Positions 20,804 through 35,238 of a stretch of DNA of 35,238 bases are shown one piece after another. This DNA is from a virus. The notes under the pieces were generated by a model, which had not been told where the DNA came from, did no database searches, and saw nothing but the letters and a program-made list of their open reading frames with translations. Both the position numbers and the translations under genes were made by a program. Each line of letters opens with the position of its first letter. Position 1 is the stretch's first letter. Location of the stretch: the UHGV virus genome UHGV-0365687; one strand, given 5' to 3'.

Positions 20804-22555
20804 ATGATTCAGGACGCTTTTGTGCGCCAGCGTGCGCGACAACTTTACTGGCAGGGTTATCCGCCCGCAGAAATATCACGTCTGATGGGAATAAACCCGA
20901 ACACGATTTATGCGTGGAAAAAACGCGACCAGTGGGATGAAACGCCACCCGTGCAGCGTGTCACGCAATCCATTGATGCGCGCCTCATCCAGCTTACTGA
21001 AAAACAGAATAAAACAGGCGGTGACTTTAAGGAAATAGACCTGCTGACCCGGCAGCTTAAAAAGCTGCATGATGGCCAGCCGGATGTGATGGCCGCAGGA
21101 AAGAAAGGCCGGGCGAAAAAACTCAAAAATCATTTCACGCCGGAACAGATTGCCGCACTGCGGGAAAAAATCATCAGCAGGCTGGAGCGGCATCAGCGGG
21201 GCTGGTTTGACTCCCTGACCCTTTGCGGGGAAGCCGGGATACGTAACAGGATGATCCTGAAATCCCGACAGATTGGGGCGACCTGGTATTTTGCACAGGA
21301 AGCACTGCTGATGGCGCTGCGTGACGATGTGGCGCAACCTTACCAGCGTAACCAGATTTTTTTGTCTGCGTCGCGTCGTCAGGCGTTCCAGTTTAAAAGC
21401 ATTATTCAGAAGGCTGCATCTGAAGTTGATGTGGAGCTGAAAGGGGGCGATAAAATCATCCTCTCCAACGGCGCAGAGCTGCATTTTCTCGGTACTTCTG
21501 CTGCGACGGCACAGTCCTATACAGGCAATTTTTATTTTGATGAATTTTTCTGGGTCAGTCGCTTTGCTGAACTGCGCAAGGTGGCTGGCGCTATGGCAAC
21601 CCTCAGCGGGCTGCGACGCACCTACTTCTCCACGCCATCAACCGAAACGCACGAGGCATACGTCTACTGGAACGGCGACCGCTGGAACGAGAAAAAGGCC
21701 GCGCATAAACGCCAGCATTTTTCTGTGGACTGGAAAACGCTGCATAACGGGCTTATCTGCCCCGACCGGACGTGGCGGCAAATTGTCACGCTGGAAGATG
21801 TGGTTAATCACGGCTGGAAACACACCGATATTGATGAAATTCGTGATGAAAACACCGAAGACGAGTTCCGCAATCTCTATATGTGTGAGTTTGTCCGCGA
21901 AGGGGAATCGGCATTTAACCTGAATATCCTGATTGGCTGCGGCGTTGATGGATACGACGACTGGAAAGACTGGAAACCTTTTGCTCCCCGCCCGATGGGG
22001 AATCGTCCGGTATGGATTGGGTATGACGCAAACGGCAGCAGTGGAAACGGCGACAGTGGCGCGGTGTCCGTGGTGGTTCCTCCGGCTGTTCCTGGTGGCC
22101 GTTTTCGAACGGTGGAGACGCGACGCGTTCAGGGGCTGGAGTTTGAAGAACAGGCCAGAGTCATTGAAGAGTTCACGTGTCGCTACAACGTGGAACACAT
22201 CGGCATTGATGTGACGGGCGGGAACGGGGAGGCTGTTTATCAGATAGTGAAACGGTTTTTCCCTGCTGCTATTCCGTACACCTTCACGCTGTCATCAAAA
22301 CGGTCGCTGGTACTGAAAATGCTGCAAATAATGCGTGCCGGGCGGTGGGAATACGATCGCGCCGAACGCGAGCTGGTCGCGGCCTTTAACGCCGTGCGTA
22401 AGGTGAAAACACCGGGCGGCTTTATCACTTACGAAACGGACCGCGCGAGGGGGATCAGCCACGGCGACCTTGCGTGGGCAACCATGCTTGCTGTCATTAA
22501 CGAACCAATTGGCGGCGAAGGAGAAAACGAGCGTTTCACGGTTATGGAGTTCTGA
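20804..22555 (+). CDS. P: terminase ATPase (large) subunit P
   Basis: 583 aa, divergent from O, followed by portal gene. Confidence 0.88.
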   Translation: MIQDAFVRQRARQLYWQGYPPAEISRLMGINPNTIYAWKKRDQWDETPPVQRVTQSIDARLIQLTEKQNKTGGDFKEIDLLTRQLKKLHDGQPDVMAAGKKGRAKKLKNHFTPEQIAALREKIISRLERHQRGWFDSLTLCGEAGIRNRMILKSRQIGATWYFAQEALLMALRDDVAQPYQRNQIFLSASRRQAFQFKSIIQKAASEVDVELKGGDKIILSNGAELHFLGTSAATAQSYTGNFYFDEFFWVSRFAELRKVAGAMATLSGLRRTYFSTPSTETHEAYVYWNGDRWNEKKAAHKRQHFSVDWKTLHNGLICPDRTWRQIVTLEDVVNHGWKHTDIDEIRDENTEDEFRNLYMCEFVREGESAFNLNILIGCGVDGYDDWKDWKPFAPRPMGNRPVWIGYDANGSSGNGDSGAVSVVVPPAVPGGRFRTVETRRVQGLEFEEQARVIEEFTCRYNVEHIGIDVTGGNGEAVYQIVKRFFPAAIPYTFTLSSKRSLVLKMLQIMRAGRWEYDRAERELVAAFNAVRKVKTPGGFITYETDRARGISHGDLAWATMLAVINEPIGGEGENERFTVMEF

Positions 22556-23601
22556 TGAGCAGAAAAAATAAAAAAGTGCGCATGAGTTCACGCATTGATC
22601 TCGCTGATGCGCTCAGGAAAGAATCGTCGCTCAGTGCATTCACATTTGATGGTCCTTACCGCCTGACCGGGCATGACCTGCTGGACAATATGTACTGTGC
22701 TGATAACGGGCGGTGGTATGAAACCCCGGTGGACTGGTACGGTCTGGCAAGAGCTGCCCGGCAAACGTCCTGGCATCAGTCTGCGCTTTACTTTAAGCGT
22801 AATGTATTGCTCGGCTGCTATATTCCGCATCCGCTGCTTTCCCGGCAGGATTTCTCGGCGCTGGCGCTGGACTGGTTTGTGTTCGGTAACGCATTCCTTG
22901 AGCTTCGGAGCAATATGCTCGGCGAACCACTTAAATTACGGCACGCACTGGCGAAATACATGCGACGCGGAAGCGATCTTGAATCATGGTGGTATGTGCA
23001 GGATGGCAAGGACGCGTTTCAGTTTCGCCCTGGCAAAGTGTGCCACCTGATGAATCCGGACATTAACCAGGAAATTTACGGCATGCCGGAATATCTTGGC
23101 GCATTACTCTCGGCCAGCCTGTCTCATTCGGCGGACATGTTCAGAAAACTGTATTACGACAATGGATCCCACGCCGGGTGCATCATCTACATCGGTGCAG
23201 CGCAGGTAAACCGCGAAAGCATGGACTCCCTGAAAGAAACGCTACAGGGTGCGCGTGGTGGTGGCGCGTTTAAAAACGTGCTCATCCATGCGCCCAACGG
23301 GGGCAAAGAGGGGGTGCAAATTTTGCCGTTCCAGCAGATCACCGCAAAGGATGAGTTCATGAATGTTAAGGCGGCATCCCGTGATGATGTGCTGGCTGCG
23401 CACCGCGTTCCGCCGCAACTGATGGGGGCGATGCCGGGCGAAAAAAGTGCGTTTGGTGATGTGGAGAAGGCCGCGCGGGTTTACGCAATTAACGAGCTGA
23501 TGCCCGTCATGGAGGCCATGAAGCACATCAATGACTGGCTTGGCGAAGAGGTGATCCGCTTTAACCCTTACGCACTGTTAGACACCCAGCCCACATCCTG
23601 A
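22555..23601 (+). CDS. Q: portal (capsid vertex) protein Q
   Basis: 348 aa, P2 Q-like. Confidence 0.88.
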   Translation: MSRKNKKVRMSSRIDLADALRKESSLSAFTFDGPYRLTGHDLLDNMYCADNGRWYETPVDWYGLARAARQTSWHQSALYFKRNVLLGCYIPHPLLSRQDFSALALDWFVFGNAFLELRSNMLGEPLKLRHALAKYMRRGSDLESWWYVQDGKDAFQFRPGKVCHLMNPDINQEIYGMPEYLGALLSASLSHSADMFRKLYYDNGSHAGCIIYIGAAQVNRESMDSLKETLQGARGGGAFKNVLIHAPNGGKEGVQILPFQQITAKDEFMNVKAASRDDVLAAHRVPPQLMGAMPGEKSAFGDVEKAARVYAINELMPVMEAMKHINDWLGEEVIRFNPYALLDTQPTS

Positions 23602-23739
23602 CGCGCTTCGCTTGTCTGCTGCTTCGCCGGGGCATAAAAAATTTATGCCCCGACTCTCCAGCTCCTGTATCAATCAGATAATTTCACGACGCTTTTCTGC
23701 TTATTGCCATCATCGGCGGTCAGACTCTTACGCAATCCT

Positions 23740-23790
23740 ACCGCGTTGACTGCATGTTCTTCGCCGCCTCAGTGCGATTTTGACGGCCTT
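23740..23790. other. approximate position of cos (cohesive-end site)
   Basis: GC-rich sequence gcactgaggcggcgaag (minus strand) partly resembles the P2 cos overhang as I recall it; about 150 bp beyond Q as in P2; not exactly matched. Confidence 0.25.
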
Positions 23791-23931
23791 ACCTTTCACC
23801 CCATCAAATCAGAATCCCTCACGTATTTTTCATGCTCAGCGTGAGAAATACAGCCATTCTGTTGTGTCTCTGCGACATCGTTCAGGGAATGCTATTTACC
23901 CCCTGAAACGCGGGCTGTTCCCCCGTCACCT

Positions 23932-23956
23932 GCGCGCAGAAAAAGCGCGTTTTTTT
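23932..23956 (+). terminator. intrinsic terminator (cgcgc/gcgcg stem, 7 T) ending the P-Q transcript
   Basis: Hairpin plus uninterrupted T7 tract on the plus strand. Confidence 0.55.
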
Positions 23957-24026
23957 GTGCACGCACGGATCCTTGACGGATCCAGCCGCCACGCGGGCCG
24001 GAAGGGCAAAAAGTCGTTCAAAAAAA

Positions 24027-24053
24027 TTGTGCAAATTTGTGCACTATTGTGCA
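24027..24053. repeat. three direct TTGTGCA repeats at exact 10 bp phasing
   Basis: attgtgcaaatttgtgcactattgtgcagc read directly. Confidence 0.6.
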
Positions 24054-24092
24054 GCATGGCGATGCGCGATTATCGCCCTGGTTTGAGGGGGA

Positions 24093-24632
24093 TTAGGTGT
24101 TATTTTTATCTGTCGTCAGTGGGCTAAACCATCCACGATTTACATCGCAGGACTGATGCGTTCTGTCCTCGTGTTTCTCCTGCCACAATGCTTTTCCGCC
24201 AGCCTTTATGATGGCTCTTTCAACATCCCGCTCGTATCGCAAGGGCTGAAATACGTCATTAATGAAATATTCGCTTATGTCCGGAAGCGATACAGCAAGA
24301 TTATTTGTTTGTTGCGCCGTCCGGCTATGCGACAAAGCGGCATACTTTAATGCGTCCTGTGCTTTCTGGAATTTAAGTGCATAGTCAGTGGCGATTTTTT
24401 CCAGTTCAGCGATGCGCTTTTTTGCTGTTTCCAGTTCATCCAGCAGTGCCAGCATGTCTTCCGGTCCAGCCAGAATTCTGAAGGTGTTGATCGCGTCAAT
24501 ATCCACACCGTAATCTTTAAGTTCCTGTTCGCTTAACAAATCATCATCAACTGGCAATATTAACAGGCGTTCCATTGCCGGAATTGCACGTTCTGCTGCC
24601 ATTTGTAGTGCCTGATAGTCAATTTTGCTCAC
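24093..24632 (-). CDS. Ead/Ea22-like protein (paralogue 2)
   Basis: MSKIDYQAL... N-terminus and KRIAELE coiled-coil as in Ead/Ea22-family prophage proteins; 4 nt overlap with upstream paralogue. Confidence 0.6.
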   Translation of the reverse strand: MSKIDYQALQMAAERAIPAMERLLILPVDDDLLSEQELKDYGVDIDAINTFRILAGPEDMLALLDELETAKKRIAELEKIATDYALKFQKAQDALKYAALSHSRTAQQTNNLAVSLPDISEYFINDVFQPLRYERDVERAIIKAGGKALWQEKHEDRTHQSCDVNRGWFSPLTTDKNNT

Positions 24633-25228
24633 TGGCTGCCTCCTTTGCGAAGCTCTGCGGCGAAATATACAGCTGCGGAAACAATAGCTGCATGTCGGTA
24701 TTCATCATCAGAAAATAAAGAATCTCCCTTAAGTGCATTGACGATACTCTGATGATTTTTTGCCAGCATCTCCACGCCCTGCGCCCGTACTTCAGCCAGA
24801 AAAGCGTCGGTGGCTGGGGTTTGTGGCATTCCTCCGTCTGTTGCGCAGATATACGCGTCAGATATTTCATCCTGCTCTCCATCAAATACATAGCAACTGC
24901 CCCTGATAAACAGCTTCATTGCGGCATTCTCCGCTGCCAGCTCCGTGAAATTAGCCTCCAGCTCTGCAATGCGTTTGCTTTGGGCTTCTCGTTCATCCAA
25001 CAGAGCCTGCACTACTTCAGGGTTGAAAGCTGCGATATAACGAGCGTTGTTCTCTGCGTTTTTCTGTTCGTCGAATCCAGGCCAGTCGACAATATCTCCG
25101 TGATGATTATCTCCTGGTGTGTGCACGGCGTACGTGCCGTATTTGCCCGGCGAAATAAATGCGACCCATTCGCCCTGTGTTGCCTGTTTTGCTAACTCAC
25201 GCAGTGCCTGATAGTTGATTTCGCTCAT
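24629..25228 (-). CDS. Ead/Ea22-like protein (paralogue 1)
   Basis: MSEINYQALRELAKQATQGEW... typical Ead/Ea22 N-terminal region. Confidence 0.65.
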   Translation of the reverse strand: MSEINYQALRELAKQATQGEWVAFISPGKYGTYAVHTPGDNHHGDIVDWPGFDEQKNAENNARYIAAFNPEVVQALLDEREAQSKRIAELEANFTELAAENAAMKLFIRGSCYVFDGEQDEISDAYICATDGGMPQTPATDAFLAEVRAQGVEMLAKNHQSIVNALKGDSLFSDDEYRHAAIVSAAVYFAAELRKGGSQ

Positions 25229-25291
25229 TAAGTCGGTCTCCTTGTTTATGTTCTGAGGTGGAGATCAGGGCGAACACGCCCTGATGTTGTG

Positions 25292-25603
25292 TTATTCAGG
25301 AAATAACGCCCTGATATTTCTGGCCATCTGACTGGTTATCTGTGCGGTTGGTACTGGCTGTGACAGGGGGCGTTCTGTCCTGGTTTGTGTCACTGATAAC
25401 GCCTCATCATCAGCCCATGCAGCCAGTCGGTAAGCCTCTGCCGGATTCATTTTCAGAAGTGCCAGCCCGGCCAGAAAAGCCACGCGTTGGCCGCTTTTGC
25501 GGGCTTCTGGTGTAAGGCTGTCCAGCCAGGCGCATGCTTCGCCTTCGTTCTTGACGGCGGCGGGCTTCAGATAGAAACTTATCCGTCTGGTTGGTGTCGT
25601 CAT
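25292..25603 (-). CDS. parR: ParR/StbB-like small DNA-binding protein
   Basis: 103 aa directly downstream of the ParM-like gene; start MTTPT with AAGGAG RBS; ISFYLKP...LAGLALL resembles ParR N-terminal region. Confidence 0.5.
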   Translation of the reverse strand: MTTPTRRISFYLKPAAVKNEGEACAWLDSLTPEARKSGQRVAFLAGLALLKMNPAEAYRLAAWADDEALSVTQTRTERPLSQPVPTAQITSQMARNIRALFPE

Positions 25604-25607
25604 TGGT

Positions 25608-26567
25608 TTACTCCTTGTCCATTGCGTACAGCCCATTAACCAGAGCAAACTGTGGCACCCCGTCCGCGATGAAAGTCGCATTAACTCCGCAGGCTTCGCG
25701 GATAGCGGGTGCCACAATCTCCGCCCCGCCACCGACAACCATCACCCGCCCGTAACCCGAAAAACCCGCCAGCGCGCGGATCACGCGTTGTTTCAGTGTT
25801 TCTTCCTTTTCACGAATAACCGCCATCAGGCTGGCGTAATGCGCGTCATTGTGGATGTGCTGGCGCAGCCAGGCTTCATCATGGCGATGTTCGATAATGG
25901 TATTGGCGATGTGGTGACTGGTGCGCATACCGTTAGTGGCCATCACCGACAGTACGGCATCGGCCATCAGAGAAACGCCTACGTGTGGATCGCAAAACAC
26001 CTGGCTGATACCTGCCAGTTGCCCCTGAACCTTTGCCACATCCAGCGTGGTTCCGCCCAAATCCACAATCAGCAGGGATTCAAACGGACTCATGTCAGCC
26101 AGTGCCTTAAAGCCAGCCGGAATGGATTCAGGCATAACCCGCACGTTACGGATAGTGAATGCTTCGCCGTTCTGGTACTCCACCGGGCGCATAACGTTCG
26201 CTTTTTTGCGGTTGATGTTGGCCATGTCCGGCTGTGCGTTTGTGTCGAAATACTCGCTCAGTGGCAGGGTGACAACCACATCCACTTCCTGTGGTGTGAT
26301 GCCTGATTTGACCAGCGCGTGATGAATGGCAATTACATTCACATCGCTGTACTGGTATTGCGTGTCGGTCGTCTGGACAAAGCGATCGCTGACCGGATCA
26401 AAACCATAGCGCACGCCATCAAGCATGTAGTTCGCGGGCTGCGTGCCACCGAACGGCGCAGACCATTCCGACTTGAAGCTGTTCGGGCTGATGGCGTTGC
26501 GGCGTTCGCCGTTCTCAGTCCATGCCAGCTTGATGTTGGTGGAGCCGTCGTCGATACAAATTTTCAT
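25608..26567 (-). CDS. parM: ParM/StbA-family actin-like ATPase
   Basis: MKICIDDGSTNIKLAW...ISPNSFK...YSDVNVIAIHHAL...IVDLGGTTLD: strong resemblance to plasmid R1 ParM including the phosphate-binding motifs. Confidence 0.8.
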   Translation of the reverse strand: MKICIDDGSTNIKLAWTENGERRNAISPNSFKSEWSAPFGGTQPANYMLDGVRYGFDPVSDRFVQTTDTQYQYSDVNVIAIHHALVKSGITPQEVDVVVTLPLSEYFDTNAQPDMANINRKKANVMRPVEYQNGEAFTIRNVRVMPESIPAGFKALADMSPFESLLIVDLGGTTLDVAKVQGQLAGISQVFCDPHVGVSLMADAVLSVMATNGMRTSHHIANTIIEHRHDEAWLRQHIHNDAHYASLMAVIREKEETLKQRVIRALAGFSGYGRVMVVGGGAEIVAPAIREACGVNATFIADGVPQFALVNGLYAMDKE

Positions 26568-26598
26568 GTCGCTTTTCCTTATGTTGATTAATTAATCG

Positions 26599-26709
26599 TT
26601 TACGGGATTCTGAAATCCCGTTTTTGTCTGTTTTGTGCTCGCTTCATATATCGCTGCGCGTTTTTTGCTCATTTACGGGATTCGTGAGTCCCGTTTCTGT
26701 CTGTTTTTT
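26599..26709. repeat. two ~36-38 bp direct repeats, each a palindromic hairpin plus T-tract (parC-like candidate)
   Basis: tttacgggattctgaaatcccgtttttgtctgtttt (26599-26634) and tttacgggattcgtgagtcccgtttctgtctgtttttt (26672-26709). Confidence 0.5.
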
Positions 26710-29466
26710 GTTTCCACTGGTCAGGCCACCCCGCAGCAGGTCTGCTTTGCGGCGGGCGCGTTCAGTGGTTTCACTGATTCTCTGTGCGTGCTCTGCGTCG
26801 CGGATGGCGCGCAGCATGTCAGAAAGCACGGTAACGGGGGTTTTCATGGTGTTCTGGTCCTGCTGAAGTGTGGATGCCAGGCGTGCGGCGGCTTCAGGGT
26901 CTGATGCCCCCAGCTGTGCCAGATAGCTGGCGATCGGGTTATGGCGGATCTCCGTGCTGCTTACGCCATGATTACGGCTCAGTCGCTGCCAGAGCTGCGT
27001 GATTCGGCTGTCCGGGCGGGTATCCGGTTTGCGTACAATTTCAAATCCCTGCGGTGCAATGATGCTGCCGTCAACGTACAGACTGCCGCCCCGTAACAGG
27101 TGCTGCATCTGTTGTTCACCGATATGCAGGCCGAGAGATTCAGCAGACTCCCGCCATTCTTTAGCGAGTAACTCGTGGTTATCAGGCAAAGGCCGCTGCT
27201 GTTTGCGGCTCTGTGTCCAGTTCTGCATTTCATCGCTGCTGTTTTTTGCCTGTTTGTCACGAAGCGAACGCATCAGCGCCCGGCGTTCGTGCCGTTTCAG
27301 TGAGCGCATCCATTCATTTACTTCAACGCCGTCAGGAAGCTGCGGCCACGGTGCTGGCCGTTCTTCCGGCTGTTCTGTCCCGTTGTTGCCTGTTTCCTGT
27401 ACACGGGGACAGTTATTGCCACGAGTCCAAGGGGCGGCAGGGCCGCCCTGAAGGTCAAAACCATTTTCGCGGGTGCTGTCTTCCGCTTCCGGTTTACGTC
27501 TTACCAGCTTCCAGTTATCCGGATGCGTGCACACACGGGAGGATTCCCCGATGAGTGGCGACCAGATCCCGTAAATCTGTACACTCTGTTCGCCGTAATC
27601 GTTCAGCTCATCGGCGAGATCGTAGGCGGTGCGAATCAGGTAGTCTTTGCGTGGAACAAGTACGCCGCCCTGTTTTTCAATGTAGGTGGCAAAACATCCG
27701 GCATCAGCGGCAGCAAGAACCGCATCCATTGCGTCATCCTTCAGCCGTTGCGGGCCTTCCGGGTTGCGAGCCATCTGGCTGGCAAGGCGGCGCAGTTCAC
27801 GCCATACCTGACGGGAAGGGATGCCAAAGAACTGGAACTGGCGGACCCGGTGAAGACGTGCCCAGCCGATGGCACGTTCCACGCTCTCGGCCATTGATTT
27901 TCCGGTTTCGTGGTCAACGCGTGGCTTGCCCGTTTTCGGGTCGATGCCATCCACGGCGCGGCTGTCCAGGTTTTTTCCGATGTAGGTGGCGATATAGCTG
28001 GTCGGTGTGCCTTTTGAGCCGTCGACATACTCCACTTTAAAGCGCGGAGTAATATCATTGCCCAGCTCGTGGCGGTCTTCCTGAATGGCAATATCGCGGG
28101 TGATGGCCACGATGCTGTCGATTTCTTCCGGATGAGCAAAGACCATCATATGCCAGTGCACGGTGCCGTCATGGTGAGGCTCCACCGTGCGGATGCCATA
28201 CCAGCGCAGGCCGTCGCGATTCAGTTTTTTGCGGACCGCCGCAAAAAACGTGTTAACCAGGTAATCGCTGGAGTCGCGCATGGTGGCCCCGTTCCATTTG
28301 GGGTTCGGATGACCATTCTCCGTTGTTGCGTGGTATTTTGACGGGCAGGTGACAGTCAGAAACACCGCTTTGTCGCCACGGGCTTCGGCCAGAAGTTCCA
28401 GCCCCTTCATGGTGGCCATCATTTCTGCCTTACGGTGAACCGGGTTACTTACTCCCGCGTAATACACTGTCTCGAGATCAATCGTGAACCCGTCTTCGTT
28501 TTCCAGCATGAAACTTTTCAGGAAATCGCGTGTTTTCTCGCGCTGTGCGCGAAACTCGCTTAACGCGTCCTGGCTCAGATAGGGTGATGTTTTTCTGGAA
28601 ACCAGACAGGCGGCGCGGAGTTGTTCTTCTCTCCACTCGCAACGTAACAGCCACAGTTTGCGTTTCCACCATTCCGCACAGGTCAGGCGAAGGATTGCGC
28701 CCGGCAGCAGCTCCGTGTCCGGTTCGTTCCCCCGGTCTTTATCTGTTGTCAGTGCGTCATAATGTGGAGGCATGATGTGCAGGTGTAACGCCATGCGGGC
28801 CAGCATCTGATACGCCTTCAGCGTTACATCCATGGTCAGTTCGCCATCGGTCGCGCCAAAGCCATCGCAGAGTTTTTCGAAGGTGCTGCTGAACATCGCC
28901 GCCGTCATGGTGGCCAGCGTCTGTATCTGGTGTTTGTTGAGCTGCGGCAGGTAAAGCAAATCGTCCAGGCGTTCGCGTCCGGCAAGGGAGCGATAACCCG
29001 GTGTCAGCCAGTGTCCGTCAGTGCGATCCAGACGTTCGAATATTTTGCGCAGGGTTCCGCGTGCATAGCGTTCCGCCTGCCAGCTCTTTTTGCCTTTCCG
29101 GCGATCGGCTTCCTGTTTTTTGCGCAGGAAGGAGAGGTGGCGAATAAGCGGATCGCGCAGATAGGACGGCAGCAGGCGCAGCGAGGCCATGGCTTCATCC
29201 ACCGCGCCGCGTGCCTGTTTTCTGGCGTCTCCTGCCAGTGTGATGGTTTTGTCCTGTTTTTCCTGTGCGTCCAGGCTTTTATTAATCAGGTTGCCCAGTG
29301 GCGTGGCGGAGAACGCCGCATCAGCCATTTCCTGGCGGCGCTCGTTCTCTACCCGGTAGGCATCCAGCCAGGAGGAAAGCGCGGATTCAGGAGCGGGGAT
29401 CCCCGTTCCTTCACGCCCCACTGCGTGGCGCGGTTGTTGCCAGTCCCTGATGTACTCTGCCGTCAT
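26644..29466 (-). CDS. A: replication initiation endonuclease A (HUH rolling-circle initiator)
   Basis: 940 aa with HWHMMVF HUH motif, P2 A-like. Confidence 0.88.
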   Translation of the reverse strand: MTAEYIRDWQQPRHAVGREGTGIPAPESALSSWLDAYRVENERRQEMADAAFSATPLGNLINKSLDAQEKQDKTITLAGDARKQARGAVDEAMASLRLLPSYLRDPLIRHLSFLRKKQEADRRKGKKSWQAERYARGTLRKIFERLDRTDGHWLTPGYRSLAGRERLDDLLYLPQLNKHQIQTLATMTAAMFSSTFEKLCDGFGATDGELTMDVTLKAYQMLARMALHLHIMPPHYDALTTDKDRGNEPDTELLPGAILRLTCAEWWKRKLWLLRCEWREEQLRAACLVSRKTSPYLSQDALSEFRAQREKTRDFLKSFMLENEDGFTIDLETVYYAGVSNPVHRKAEMMATMKGLELLAEARGDKAVFLTVTCPSKYHATTENGHPNPKWNGATMRDSSDYLVNTFFAAVRKKLNRDGLRWYGIRTVEPHHDGTVHWHMMVFAHPEEIDSIVAITRDIAIQEDRHELGNDITPRFKVEYVDGSKGTPTSYIATYIGKNLDSRAVDGIDPKTGKPRVDHETGKSMAESVERAIGWARLHRVRQFQFFGIPSRQVWRELRRLASQMARNPEGPQRLKDDAMDAVLAAADAGCFATYIEKQGGVLVPRKDYLIRTAYDLADELNDYGEQSVQIYGIWSPLIGESSRVCTHPDNWKLVRRKPEAEDSTRENGFDLQGGPAAPWTRGNNCPRVQETGNNGTEQPEERPAPWPQLPDGVEVNEWMRSLKRHERRALMRSLRDKQAKNSSDEMQNWTQSRKQQRPLPDNHELLAKEWRESAESLGLHIGEQQMQHLLRGGSLYVDGSIIAPQGFEIVRKPDTRPDSRITQLWQRLSRNHGVSSTEIRHNPIASYLAQLGASDPEAAARLASTLQQDQNTMKTPVTVLSDMLRAIRDAEHAQRISETTERARRKADLLRGGLTSGNKKQTETGLTNPVNEQKTRSDI

Positions 29467-33457: not shown

Positions 33458-33784
33458 TCATGCAGCAAAATTAAGGAAGCCTAATCCCAAATCTTCCGCC
33501 AGCTTCTTGGCTTTCTTAAGCCAGTGATTGCGCCAATCTTTACGCTCAGGAGGAAGCTGTTTCGTTGCGTCATAGACCATTTCGAGCCACTCATTCCAAA
33601 GGATGAGAAGACGGCGCGAACTCCCTTCCTCGCCTAAAACCTCGCGCTCAGTAGTTAGAGGGATGAGTCGACGCTCTACCAACTTTCTTACGGCTGATTC
33701 GGTCTTACCTGTGCGGCGGGAAAACTCATCGACGGTGATGGGGTCTGGGATCTTAAACAATGCCCTCAATAGTTCTTCATTCAT
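33458..33784 (-). CDS. cox: Cox-like excision/regulatory protein (first gene of early operon)
   Basis: Start MNEELLRALFKIPDPITVDEFSRRTGKTESAVRKL (HTH), divergent from C. Confidence 0.6.
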   Translation of the reverse strand: MNEELLRALFKIPDPITVDEFSRRTGKTESAVRKLVERRLIPLTTEREVLGEEGSSRRLLILWNEWLEMVYDATKQLPPERKDWRNHWLKKAKKLAEDLGLGFLNFAA

Positions 33785-33879
33785 GTGATAATCTCCCTGT
33801 TTGGGGTATTTCTTGCGACGGATGCCCCAAATCAAACTCATTTGTATAAACATTAATACAGACGTTGGAGAATTGCAAC
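33785..33879. promoter_or_regulatory. lysis-lysogeny switch region with divergent promoters; inverted repeat tttgggg-N18-ccccaaa (33800-33831)
   Basis: Position between cox and C; palindrome and tataaa-like element read directly. Confidence 0.45.
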
Positions 33880-34182
33880 ATGCGTATGACTATTGGAGAG
33901 CGCATAAAAATCATGCGTGAAAGCGAGAGACTTACCAGCCTCCCGGATACAGCAAAAATGCTTGGTTTAAACCGTGATGCTCTGTGGAGATATGAAAGCG
34001 GTAAAACTATCCCTAATGCTGAAGTAATTGAGCAAATACTAAACAACCCCAGATTTGAGAAATATGCGTTGTGGTTTATGACTGGGAAAATTGCGCCTGA
34101 ATCCGGGCAGATAGCTCCGGCTCTCGCACACTATGGGCAAGAGCCAACGGACTTACCCCCATCCGAAAGGAAAATTGGCTAA
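33880..34182 (+). CDS. C: immunity repressor C
   Basis: Start MRMTIGERIKIMRESE with GGAG RBS; FMTGKIAPESGQIAPALAHYGQ resembles the P2 C C-terminal region. Confidence 0.8.
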   Translation: MRMTIGERIKIMRESERLTSLPDTAKMLGLNRDALWRYESGKTIPNAEVIEQILNNPRFEKYALWFMTGKIAPESGQIAPALAHYGQEPTDLPPSERKIG

Positions 34183-34248
34183 CCCTTTATTATTCTTACG
34201 TTTTACAAACTGGAAATGTCTTTCCTCGTTTCACCGGAGGGCTTGCCA

Positions 34249-35238
34249 ATGGCAATTAAAGCGCTCGATGGTGGACGGTATAAAGTGGATGTTAGACCGC
34301 GTGGCCGAAGTGGACGTCGGATTCAGCGGATTTTTAAGAAAAAGGCAGATGCAGTGGCCTTTGAGCGTTATGTTCTCAGCCACATGCACGATAAGGAATG
34401 GCTTGAAAAGCCAACAGAGCAACGTCATCTCTCAGATCTGCTTCCGTTATGGTGGGAATTGGGTGGACGCAATAAGCCATATGCTAACGGCGTTCTAACC
34501 AGGTTGAAAAAAATCATCAAAGAAATGAATGATCCAAGGGTTAGCCAGATTAATGCTCGTTTCATGGCCGCTTATCGAAGCTCCCGTTTATCCTTGGGAG
34601 TAAAAGAGTCTACTGTTCGGCGTGATGAGTCGGATCTCGGAGGAATGTTTACACTCCTGGCAAATGCCGGGGAATTTCACGGAGAAAATCCGCTCCGCGC
34701 CCTCCCCTCTTTGAAACGAAAATCACCCGAAATGACGTATCTCACCACGGAAGAAATCGCCAAATTACTGGATGCAGTAAGCGGTGATGCCCGGCGGATT
34801 ACGCTACTTTGTCTCAGTACTGGGGCGAGATGGGGAGAAGCGAAAAATCTGCGCGCGGAACACATCATCAATAATCGCGTGACGTTTAACAAAACTAAAA
34901 ACGGAAAAGTTCGAATTATTCCTGTCTCTGATGAAGTTGTTAGTGAGATCAAAACAAAGAAATCCGGCCTTTTGTTTGACGTCAATTATGAGGAATATCG
35001 CAAGGTGCTTCGCAGTGTTAAGCCAGACCTACCAAAAGGACAGGCTGTACATGTTCTACGCCATACCTTTGCTGCTCACTTTATGATTAATGGAGGAAAT
35101 ATACTTACGCTCCAGCGAATTATGGGGCACGCTACGATCCAGCAAACTATGACCTATGCGCACCTCGCTCCTGATTTCCTCCAGGATGCAATTTCACTTA
35201 ATCCGTTAAAAGGAGGCATCCACATTTCATCCACATAA
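34249..35238 (+). CDS. int: tyrosine integrase (P2 Int-like)
   Basis: Start MAIKALDGGRYKVDVRPRGR with GGAGG RBS; C-terminal HxLRHTFA...Y catalytic region; stop at window end. Confidence 0.88.
   Translation: MAIKALDGGRYKVDVRPRGRSGRRIQRIFKKKADAVAFERYVLSHMHDKEWLEKPTEQRHLSDLLPLWWELGGRNKPYANGVLTRLKKIIKEMNDPRVSQINARFMAAYRSSRLSLGVKESTVRRDESDLGGMFTLLANAGEFHGENPLRALPSLKRKSPEMTYLTTEEIAKLLDAVSGDARRITLLCLSTGARWGEAKNLRAEHIINNRVTFNKTKNGKVRIIPVSDEVVSEIKTKKSGLLFDVNYEEYRKVLRSVKPDLPKGQAVHVLRHTFAAHFMINGGNILTLQRIMGHATIQQTMTYAHLAPDFLQDAISLNPLKGGIHISST

Follow-up and report, generated by a model that had tools for sequence, protein, structure and literature searches.

The DNA examined here, UHGV virus genome UHGV-0365687, is a stretch of 35,238 nt (the window) that is a P2-family, P88-like (Xuanwuvirus, Peduoviridae) E. 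coli prophage. Between its replication gene A, which encodes gpA, and its portal gene Q lies a partition cassette comprising parM, which encodes an actin-fold ATPase, parR, which encodes its predicted centromere-binding adaptor, and a pair of upstream repeats that form a candidate centromere (Table 1). In one P2-family lineage the cassette has become fixed within the replication module, and we consider it somewhat better than an even chance (probability about 0.55) that it is a working ParMRC system, expressed with the early replication operon and acting on the extrachromosomal circular form of the phage genome. The cassette itself is already known: public records annotate it correctly, it has been mentioned in print since 2022, and as a discovery the locus is ordinary.

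The product of parM, which begins MKICIDDGSTNIKLAW, is a member of the ParM/StbA actin family, as the original prediction proposed. It matches the Pfam StbA_N domain (E = 1.8e-82), the ParM C-terminal domain (E = 1.3e-68) and PHROG 691, ‘partition protein’ (E = 1.8e-90), and its residues 2-316 align with residues 2-318 of the sequence of the R1 ParM structure (1mwk, E = 9e-93); NCBIfam returned sub-threshold ParM matches only. The phosphate-binding motif IDDGSTNIKL, the motif MPESIPAG with its catalytic glutamate, and the motifs DLGGTTLD and VGGGAE are all kept in the alignment with R1 ParM, and residues E148 and D170 of the R1 protein correspond to E147 and D169 of the window protein, which is 100% identical to the ParM of phage P88. 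Selection was assessed across 88 related loci, made up of the window, stretches of annotated records, and genome or viral contigs. The parM gene is intact, at 960 nt, in 87 of the 88 (the exception was deliberately fetched as a partial match), and 143 of its 200 polymorphic sites fall at third codon positions. The mean ratio of nonsynonymous to synonymous substitution rates (dN/dS) is 0.05, a figure in which dN is biased low because most of the loci were chosen as the 80 most similar in ParM protein. parM is under strong purifying selection.

The start codon of parR lies 4 nt past the parM stop codon. The predicted small ParR-like partner was confirmed by a match to Pfam Plasmid_stab_B (E = 4e-24) and by one to PHROG 2515, ‘partition protein’, but as a gene for 103 amino acids (aa); a 148-aa open reading frame (ORF) at 25292-25738, which overlaps parM, was rejected as parR, since it is the 103-aa product that is annotated in RefSeq relatives. 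No chain in the PDB matched ParR by sequence. In the same 88 loci the protein has three parts: residues 1-64, with a dN/dS of 0.19 and an invariant MTTPTRRISFYLKP in the N-terminal region; a hypervariable, nearly neutral linker (approximately residues 65-90, dN/dS 0.83) that is predicted to be disordered; and a C-terminal tail with a dN/dS of 0.06, in which the motif NI(R/Q)A(L/F)FP varies little or not at all among 27 alleles. The tail aligns with the C-terminal KKNAMKLIN of R1/R100 StbB and with the equivalent tails of other plasmid ParRs, with which the window protein shares both an N-terminal RRxxFYLxP strand region and a C-terminal (K/R)xN...LFP tail (the R1/R100 StbB sequence used here was matched, at full length and 100% identity, in more than 1000 plasmids). 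In R1 ParR, the extreme C-terminal segment is the part that binds ParM. The many mosaic ParR alleles fall to approximately 52% identity beside a ParM that keeps at least 92%, their divergence being concentrated in a linker of about 25 residues between the invariant N-terminus and the invariant C-terminal tail, and no pattern of correlation was seen between ParR allele class and variants of the dyad spacer.

The repeats upstream of parM that the original prediction had pointed to are two direct repeats of 42 nt, 73 bp apart and identical at 35 of 42 positions, a match well beyond that obtained by chance in 300 dinucleotide shuffles (mean 23.5, standard deviation 1.3, maximum 28). Each repeat contains a 20-bp dyad, ACGGGATT-N4-AATCCCGT, with no further occurrence elsewhere in the window. 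The distal repeat codes for the last residues of gpA, and in one related locus with a different A 3' end, similarity resumes at approximately the point where this repeat starts. Two GGG...CCC dyads are found in P88-like, Hafnia and Plesiomonas elements at a spacing of 72-73 bp; the proximal dyad starts 54-60 nt ahead of the parM ATG (at -56 in Hafnia and -60 in Plesiomonas), and its partner lies further upstream. In Hafnia, a 167-aa ORF parts gpA from parM and the dyads stay beside parM, indicating that they travel with parM. The Serratia and Enterobacter elements have a different inverted-repeat arrangement, and their ParR N-terminus is slightly different. An A/T-rich box, ATTAATCAA, occupies positions 26583-26595 of the window, 20-30 nt upstream of the parM start and just 5' of the Shine-Dalgarno sequence; it is kept in P88-like, Hafnia and Plesiomonas elements and might be a weak -10 element or a signal in the 5' untranslated region.

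The gap between A and parM, which lie on the same strand, measures 76 bp and contains neither a terminator-like site on the coding strand nor a sigma-70 match at the threshold of the scan. Because parMR stands at the distal end of the cox-to-A transcription unit and lacks a convincing promoter of its own, we infer that it is expressed together with gpA. The cox-like and repressor-like genes lie upstream of A and parM, in the layout expected of P2, and directly after A come four minus-strand genes in the order parM, parR, Ead/Ea22 no. 1 and Ead/Ea22 no. 2, beyond which a terminator-like hairpin is the probable end of the unit. Papers on the O157 proteome and transcriptome that mention CP-933T held no usable statement on expression of the parMR locus.

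The distribution of the cassette follows that of the replication gene. The parMR segment was found in 1308 of 5426 complete E. coli genomes (~24%), in 1456 copies, of which 1454 are chromosomal and the rest are in a 439-kb replicon or not identified. At a coverage of at least 80%, parMR was present in 1278 genomes and P88-type gpA in 1320 (~97%), so the cassette is essentially fixed in the lineage with this type of gpA, and parMR deletions among relatives are isolated cases only. All 14 P88-like phage records in INPHARED carry parMR, and the only other phage there with a ParM of the window type is the P1-like plasmid-prophage D6 (48% identity). Strains that carry the lineage include O157:H7, O104:H4, O145, UTI89 and ST131, and the same genes are annotated in phage P88, in Citrobacter phage phiSM and in thousands of RefSeq genomes. 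The window region is 97% identical to P88 and other Xuanwuvirus over the shared 60-63% of the interval. In the closest genome the prophage is integrated beside pheA, and P88 itself is chromosomally integrated, with attL and attR, and is inducible with mitomycin (PMC5285337).

The arrangement is also kept outside E. coli. The next-nearest ParMs, at 54-63% identity, belong to P2-like prophages of Plesiomonas, Hafnia, Serratia and Enterobacter, and in all four genera the order is gpA, parM, parR, cargo and portal, with the extra ORF between gpA and parM in Hafnia. ParMs at approximately 50% identity come from plasmid or integrative and conjugative element (ICE) contexts, and in a neighbour-joining tree (built without bootstrap) the prophage ParMs group together, apart from those of plasmids and ICEs. 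A 226-kb contig labelled Vagococcus sp., a Firmicute (NZ_JBQPOM010000071.1), encodes a ParM with 98% identity to that of the E. coli prophage and is most likely enterobacterial contamination or an assembly mislabelling. The length of gpA varies among parMR-bearing relatives (785, 789, 835 and 907 aa, compared with 940 aa in the window), and the C-terminal two thirds of gpA match a separate family, PHROG 6857, of unknown function.

The original prediction held the cassette to be unexpected in an integrating P2-type phage and named, among the findings that would overturn it, that the gene set is the conserved norm at this position in well-studied P2-like phages. For parMR this is the case in the P88-like lineage, with the phage records and genome counts given above, and the cassette has been in the literature since 2022; the view of it as unexpected is not supported. 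In that year Rousset et al. surveyed the interval between gpA and gpQ in 18,150 P2-like prophages of E. coli and reported a ‘putative plasmid partitioning system’ (PMC9122126). It is the same system, with the same Pfam pair between gpA and gpQ and with Ead_Ea22 listed as a companion; the window differs in having two Ead/Ea22 genes instead of one or none.

By analogy with R1, ParR dimers would bind both 20-bp dyads immediately ahead of parM, the ParR C-terminal tail would capture the ends of ATP-dependent ParM filaments, and the filaments would move or position the ParR-bound circles of phage DNA. ParM and ParR would be made together with gpA after infection or prophage induction and would be silent in a quiescent lysogen. 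Their substrate would be the extrachromosomal circular genome, whose replicating copies may be positioned and separated and so not lost when the cell divides ahead of lysis or (re)integration. We favor a role on the circle because gpA is a rolling-circle initiator and because the AlpAC and SrpMRC systems described below, which act on excised circles, are close models of function. Set against the roles that the original prediction put forward, one on a transient extrachromosomal form fits best.

Among the closest known systems is parMRC of plasmids R1 and R100 (stbAB, IncFII, type II). The ParMs align over their whole length and agree in the phosphate-binding and catalytic motifs, the order is repeats, parM and parR in both, and the ParRs share their N-terminal region and tail motif. 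The R1/R100 system is borne on a plasmid, however, whereas that of the window is borne on a chromosomally integrating phage, and the phage ParMs form a branch of their own. The R1/R100 ParR has 117 aa rather than 103, and the conserved middle helix of plasmid ParRs is lacking here. The centromeres differ as well. R1 parC consists of ten 11-bp iterons, whereas the candidate here consists of two 20-bp dyads 73 bp apart, without a clear internal promoter. D6 encodes StbA and StbB, its StbA being of the window ParM type, and the D6 annotation cites the StbA of P88; unlike the window prophage, D6 is a true 91-kb plasmid prophage whose ParM falls among plasmid ParMs in the tree. Since the iterons upstream of the IncFII and D6 homologues are unrelated to the dyads, no centromere sequence is shared with either.

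Two other systems show what an actin-type partition machine may do in an element that is normally integrated. SrpMRC stabilises the ICE R391 when it is excised and replicating by the rolling-circle mechanism; it is expressed via an induction-specific promoter, and its centromere, srpC, to which SrpR binds, is made up of four repeats arranged as two pairs immediately before the motor gene (PMC4489591). The likeness to the window lies in an actin-type system in a normally integrated element of the SXT/R391 kind that undergoes rolling-circle replication when excised, and in paired repeats upstream of the motor gene (two dyads, or four half-sites, here). SrpM and SrpR are distant from R1 ParMR, and SrpR has no recognisable domain, whereas the window proteins are clear members of the ParM and ParR families; the host of SrpMRC is an ICE and its function has been demonstrated, while here the host is a phage and the function is predicted. 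In the Corynebacterium glutamicum prophage CGP3, AlpA and AlpC are induced early, and efficient replication of the excised phage circle depends on them (PMC4446434). They too are an actin-like ATPase and a DNA-binding adaptor encoded by a prophage, with adaptor sites upstream of the operon (candidate sites only, in the window), although they differ in the family of the actin-like protein, in the host phylum and in having the adaptor gene first (PMC4446434, PMC5539076). Of the features that define such a class of partition system in integrative elements, the window has the motor, the adaptor, the upstream repeats and the normally integrated state, and its operon position suggests induction-linked expression and action on the excised form.

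Alternatively, the cassette could serve a facultative plasmid-prophage that persists at low copy for many generations, for example in hosts without a free attB. This idea, that the prophages might be ‘maintained as plasmids’, was offered as speculation by Rousset et al. (PMC9122126), and we regard it as rather unlikely. Its main basis is a single record, NZ_CP148288.1 (1-34461), in which a complete P88-like genome from an E. coli isolate from a cat appears as a circular 34,461-bp ‘plasmid’ that carries int, cox, repressor, gpA and parMR together with a Hok/Gef gene and a Com/methyltransferase pair. This record is either a true episome or separately assembled excised phage DNA, and excised or induced DNA assembled apart would account for a lone circular contig equally well. 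The Plesiomonas shigelloides relative is on a contig of 32,167 bp (WEKF01000002.1), about the size of a phage genome, with the integrase near one end, and it could likewise be a separately assembled or an extrachromosomal phage genome. That the nearest phage ParM outside Xuanwuvirus is in plasmid-prophage D6 also fits a plasmid life. Phage-plasmids are extrachromosomal, however, and typically do without integration, whereas the window prophage carries int, cox and repressor genes, the integrase is kept in all relatives examined, and the cassette is not carried by a low-copy plasmid but sits in the chromosome in 1454 of its 1456 E. coli copies. Of the 7 matches in PLSDB, 5 are prophages that lie within large replicons (228 kb to 1.4 Mb). 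Another, a 26.8-kb Shigella ‘plasmid’, was rejected as evidence of an episome because it is a linear unplaced contig of a degraded prophage. Rolling-circle replication of the gpA type is not known from P2 to be under copy-number control, which also argues against stable low-copy maintenance. The episomal state allowed for in the original prediction has weak support: one 34.5-kb circular record, set against the 1454 chromosomal copies. A non-functional remnant of a phage-plasmid ancestor, also suggested there, is scarcely credible: nothing positive speaks for it beyond the absence of a demonstrated function, and it is contradicted by the strong purifying selection on an intact parM, by the constraint on the ParR tail and N-terminus, and by a gene order kept down to 54% protein identity in four other genera. 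The fixation with gpA type, the position at the end of the early operon and the overwhelmingly chromosomal state argue against both a plasmid-only lifestyle and a relic.

The dyads, for their part, might not be a centromere. They could be intrinsic terminators on the plus strand, acting on antisense or late read-through transcripts, or a structure in the mRNA, or an origin or nick site for gpA. Read on the plus strand, each forms a hairpin with a T-run behind it, and the two have terminator-like scores; the predicted RNA fold of the region is strong (z = -3.8), and some natural variants in the proximal arms (A to G, C to T) would leave G-U pairs possible in the mRNA. The P2 origin lies within gene A, as does the distal copy of the dyad. 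We nevertheless find this set of explanations improbable. The Hafnia and Plesiomonas dyads have no T-runs beside them, yet their position and 72-73 bp spacing are kept, and the plus strand already has two terminator-like sites much nearer to Q; a strong fold is automatic with two identical palindromes; the Hafnia dyads stand beside parM, parted from gpA by the 167-aa ORF; and SrpR has been shown to bind repeats in two pairs at the corresponding place just upstream of a motor gene. It is also conceivable, if decidedly improbable in our estimate, that the cassette has been co-opted to act on the host chromosome or cell cycle in the lysogen, to exclude plasmids or phages with related centromeres, or to serve in defence or anti-defence. 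It does sit in the gpA-gpQ region, a hotspot for anti-phage systems (PMC9122126, PMC13586616), where relatives have defence-like neighbours (an AAA ATPase with an S8 peptidase, HicAB, a KAP NTPase), and ParR comes in many alleles, as low as 52% identity, beside a ParM above 92%. No PADLOC profile matched any of the four proteins (ParM, ParR and both Ead/Ea22 proteins) at E values up to 0.1, however, and the position of parMR is invariant and fixed with gpA type, in contrast to the true cargo of the interval, with 27 architectures in 49 loci. The variability of ParR is concentrated in the near-neutral linker predicted to be disordered, and because neither the 14 N-terminal residues of ParR nor the dyad arms diversify, there is no sign of a change in specificity driven by incompatibility.

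Several points weigh against a working ParMRC acting on the circle, in addition to the bias in dN noted above. An AlphaFold2 model of monomeric ParR, built with 27 homologues, is poor (predicted local distance difference test score, pLDDT, 56) and has a disordered N-terminus, which leaves the ribbon-helix-helix fold structurally unconfirmed. The candidate centromere is two dyads (four half-sites) only, unlike R1 parC, and within the P88-like lineage variants are as frequent in the dyad arms as in the non-coding DNA around them (2.19 and 2.18 per site, respectively), which is why we relied on the cross-genus comparison. By eye, a weak promoter can be made out in the A-parM gap (TTCAGA at 26614-26609, separated by 16 nt from ATTAAT at 26592-26587, the -35 element being in the proximal dyad), and if it is real, parMR may be expressed in lysogens. 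The literature searched yielded no functional study of a P88-like ParMRC, and the benefit of partitioning to a phage that lyses its host within an hour is not self-evident.

Table 1. Features of the window, in order of position.
Feature	Coordinates	Strand	Remarks
Terminase gene P	20804-22555	+	
Portal gene Q	22555-23601	+	
Conserved block adjoining the portal gene	23602-24053	not assigned	Also in P2-like phage without parMR; presumed to contain cos
Terminator-like hairpin and T-run	24029-24044	-	~50 nt past Ead/Ea22 no. 2
Ead/Ea22 no. 2, 179 aa	24093-24632	-	GTG start; PF13935, E = 1e-21
Ead/Ea22 no. 1, 199 aa	24629-25228	-	PF13935, E = 2.3e-25; phrog_368 over full length
parR, centromere-binding adaptor (predicted), 103 aa	25292-25603	-	ATG 4 nt past parM stop; so annotated in RefSeq relatives
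parM, actin-fold partition ATPase, 319 aa	25608-26567	-	Pfam, PHROG, alignment with R1 ParM
Proximal 42-nt repeat	26596-26637	-	Perfect dyad 26602-26621, start 54 nt upstream of parM ATG; in 76-bp A-parM gap
Gene A, replication endonuclease, 940 aa	26644-29466	-	Phage_GPA, E = 8e-131; last gene of the early set; stop codon 26644-26646
Distal 42-nt repeat, candidate centromere/operator (parC-like)	26669-26710	-	Dyad 26675-26694; overlaps last codons of gene A
cox-like gene	33458-33853		PF10743, 24.6 bits, under the Pfam cutoff of 27.5 bits; heads the long minus-strand early gene set
Repressor-like helix-turn-helix gene	33865-34182		
Integrase gene	34216-35238		

Past parR the interval holds cargo. 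The locus occupies the slot between gpA and Q that holds tin and old in P2, as originally predicted, and the truly variable part extends from parR to the conserved block beside Q, with Ead/Ea22 genes as its commonest occupant. Other occupants in relatives include a 360-aa AAA ATPase paired with an S8-peptidase-like protein of 734 aa, a 381-aa helix-turn-helix and ImmA/IrrE-like protein and its partner of 183 aa, and a ClpX-zinc-finger-like protein of 110 aa; HicAB and a KAP NTPase take the slot in other genera. A perfect hairpin with a 9-bp stem, ATCAGGGCG-N4-CGCCCTGAT, lies at 25264-25285 in the 63-bp gap between parR and Ead/Ea22 no. 1; it has no U-run on the coding strand and may mark the boundary of cargo exchange.

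Two Ead/Ea22-family genes were predicted here, and both products score far above the PF13935 gathering cutoff of 27 (90.2 bits for no. 1 and 78.4 for no. 2). The stop of no. 1 and the start of no. 2 overlap by 4 nt. A recent tandem duplication was rejected as the origin of the pair, since their similarity is limited to approximately 98 N-terminal residues at 36% identity and their C-terminal domains differ; the C-terminal half of no. 2 nearly matches that of the single Ead/Ea22 cargo gene most often found in related prophages. When solved-structure chains were searched by sequence, neither protein matched an Ea22 chain (no. 1 had only weak matches to adenylate cyclase and unrelated ones, and no. 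2 had none), and thus no C-terminal domain of the type seen by nuclear magnetic resonance in lambda Ea22 was found. With the PF13935 proteins lambda Ea22 and P22 Ead they share an N-terminal segment and a coiled-coil-like stretch that also occur in genes of lambdoid, Stx and P1-like phages, but alignment with the lambdoid homologues is confined to the N-terminal half of the window proteins, and lambda Ea22 is encoded in the exo-xis region rather than in a P2-type gpA-cos hotspot. Lambda Ea22 favours lysogeny (PMC7093339, PMC10834534). As a guess, made with low confidence, the pair in the window modulates the lysis-lysogeny decision or processes of the host or of competitors. From its sequence, the pair looks like modular cargo, apart from the partition machine. 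The double arrangement is rare, with 7 genomes covering at least 80% of the full interval, and it is the sole uncommon part of the locus, being otherwise ordinary cargo of a variable hotspot.

Nucleotide comparison showed that about 450 bp beside Q (query positions 1-452) are common to other P2-like phages. The 19-mer of the P2/186 cos site had no match in this block (23602-24053) at up to 3 mismatches, from which it appears that the P88-like lineage uses a different cos sequence. Three TTGTGCA motifs at 24008-24053, spaced approximately 10-11 bp apart (tandem-repeat score 41), lie inside the block, where the terminator-like hairpin past Ead/Ea22 no. 2 overlaps them; they may belong to that terminator or may form an array bound by protein near cos. 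In TUM1881, the closest genome, an extra 174-aa ORF stands between Q and the conserved block. An Rfam scan of 23400-27000 gave no match.

An intact, strongly constrained actin-type segregation machine is present in ~24% of complete E. coli genomes, and experiments on it are easy because P88 is both inducible and genetically modifiable, by a published recombineering system (PMC5285337). It is quite unlikely, in our judgment, that P88-like phages use ParMRC for more than a short-lived aid in the lytic phase, sustaining by means of it a heritable low-copy extrachromosomal state after excision or infection, and are thus facultative phage-plasmids; if they do, ParMRC would be a general stabiliser of integrative elements that replicate by the rolling-circle mechanism, phages and ICEs alike. 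If the cassette acts, as we favor, on the excised circle, it would extend to a well-known phage family the idea that integrative elements actively manage a transient plasmid-like phase.

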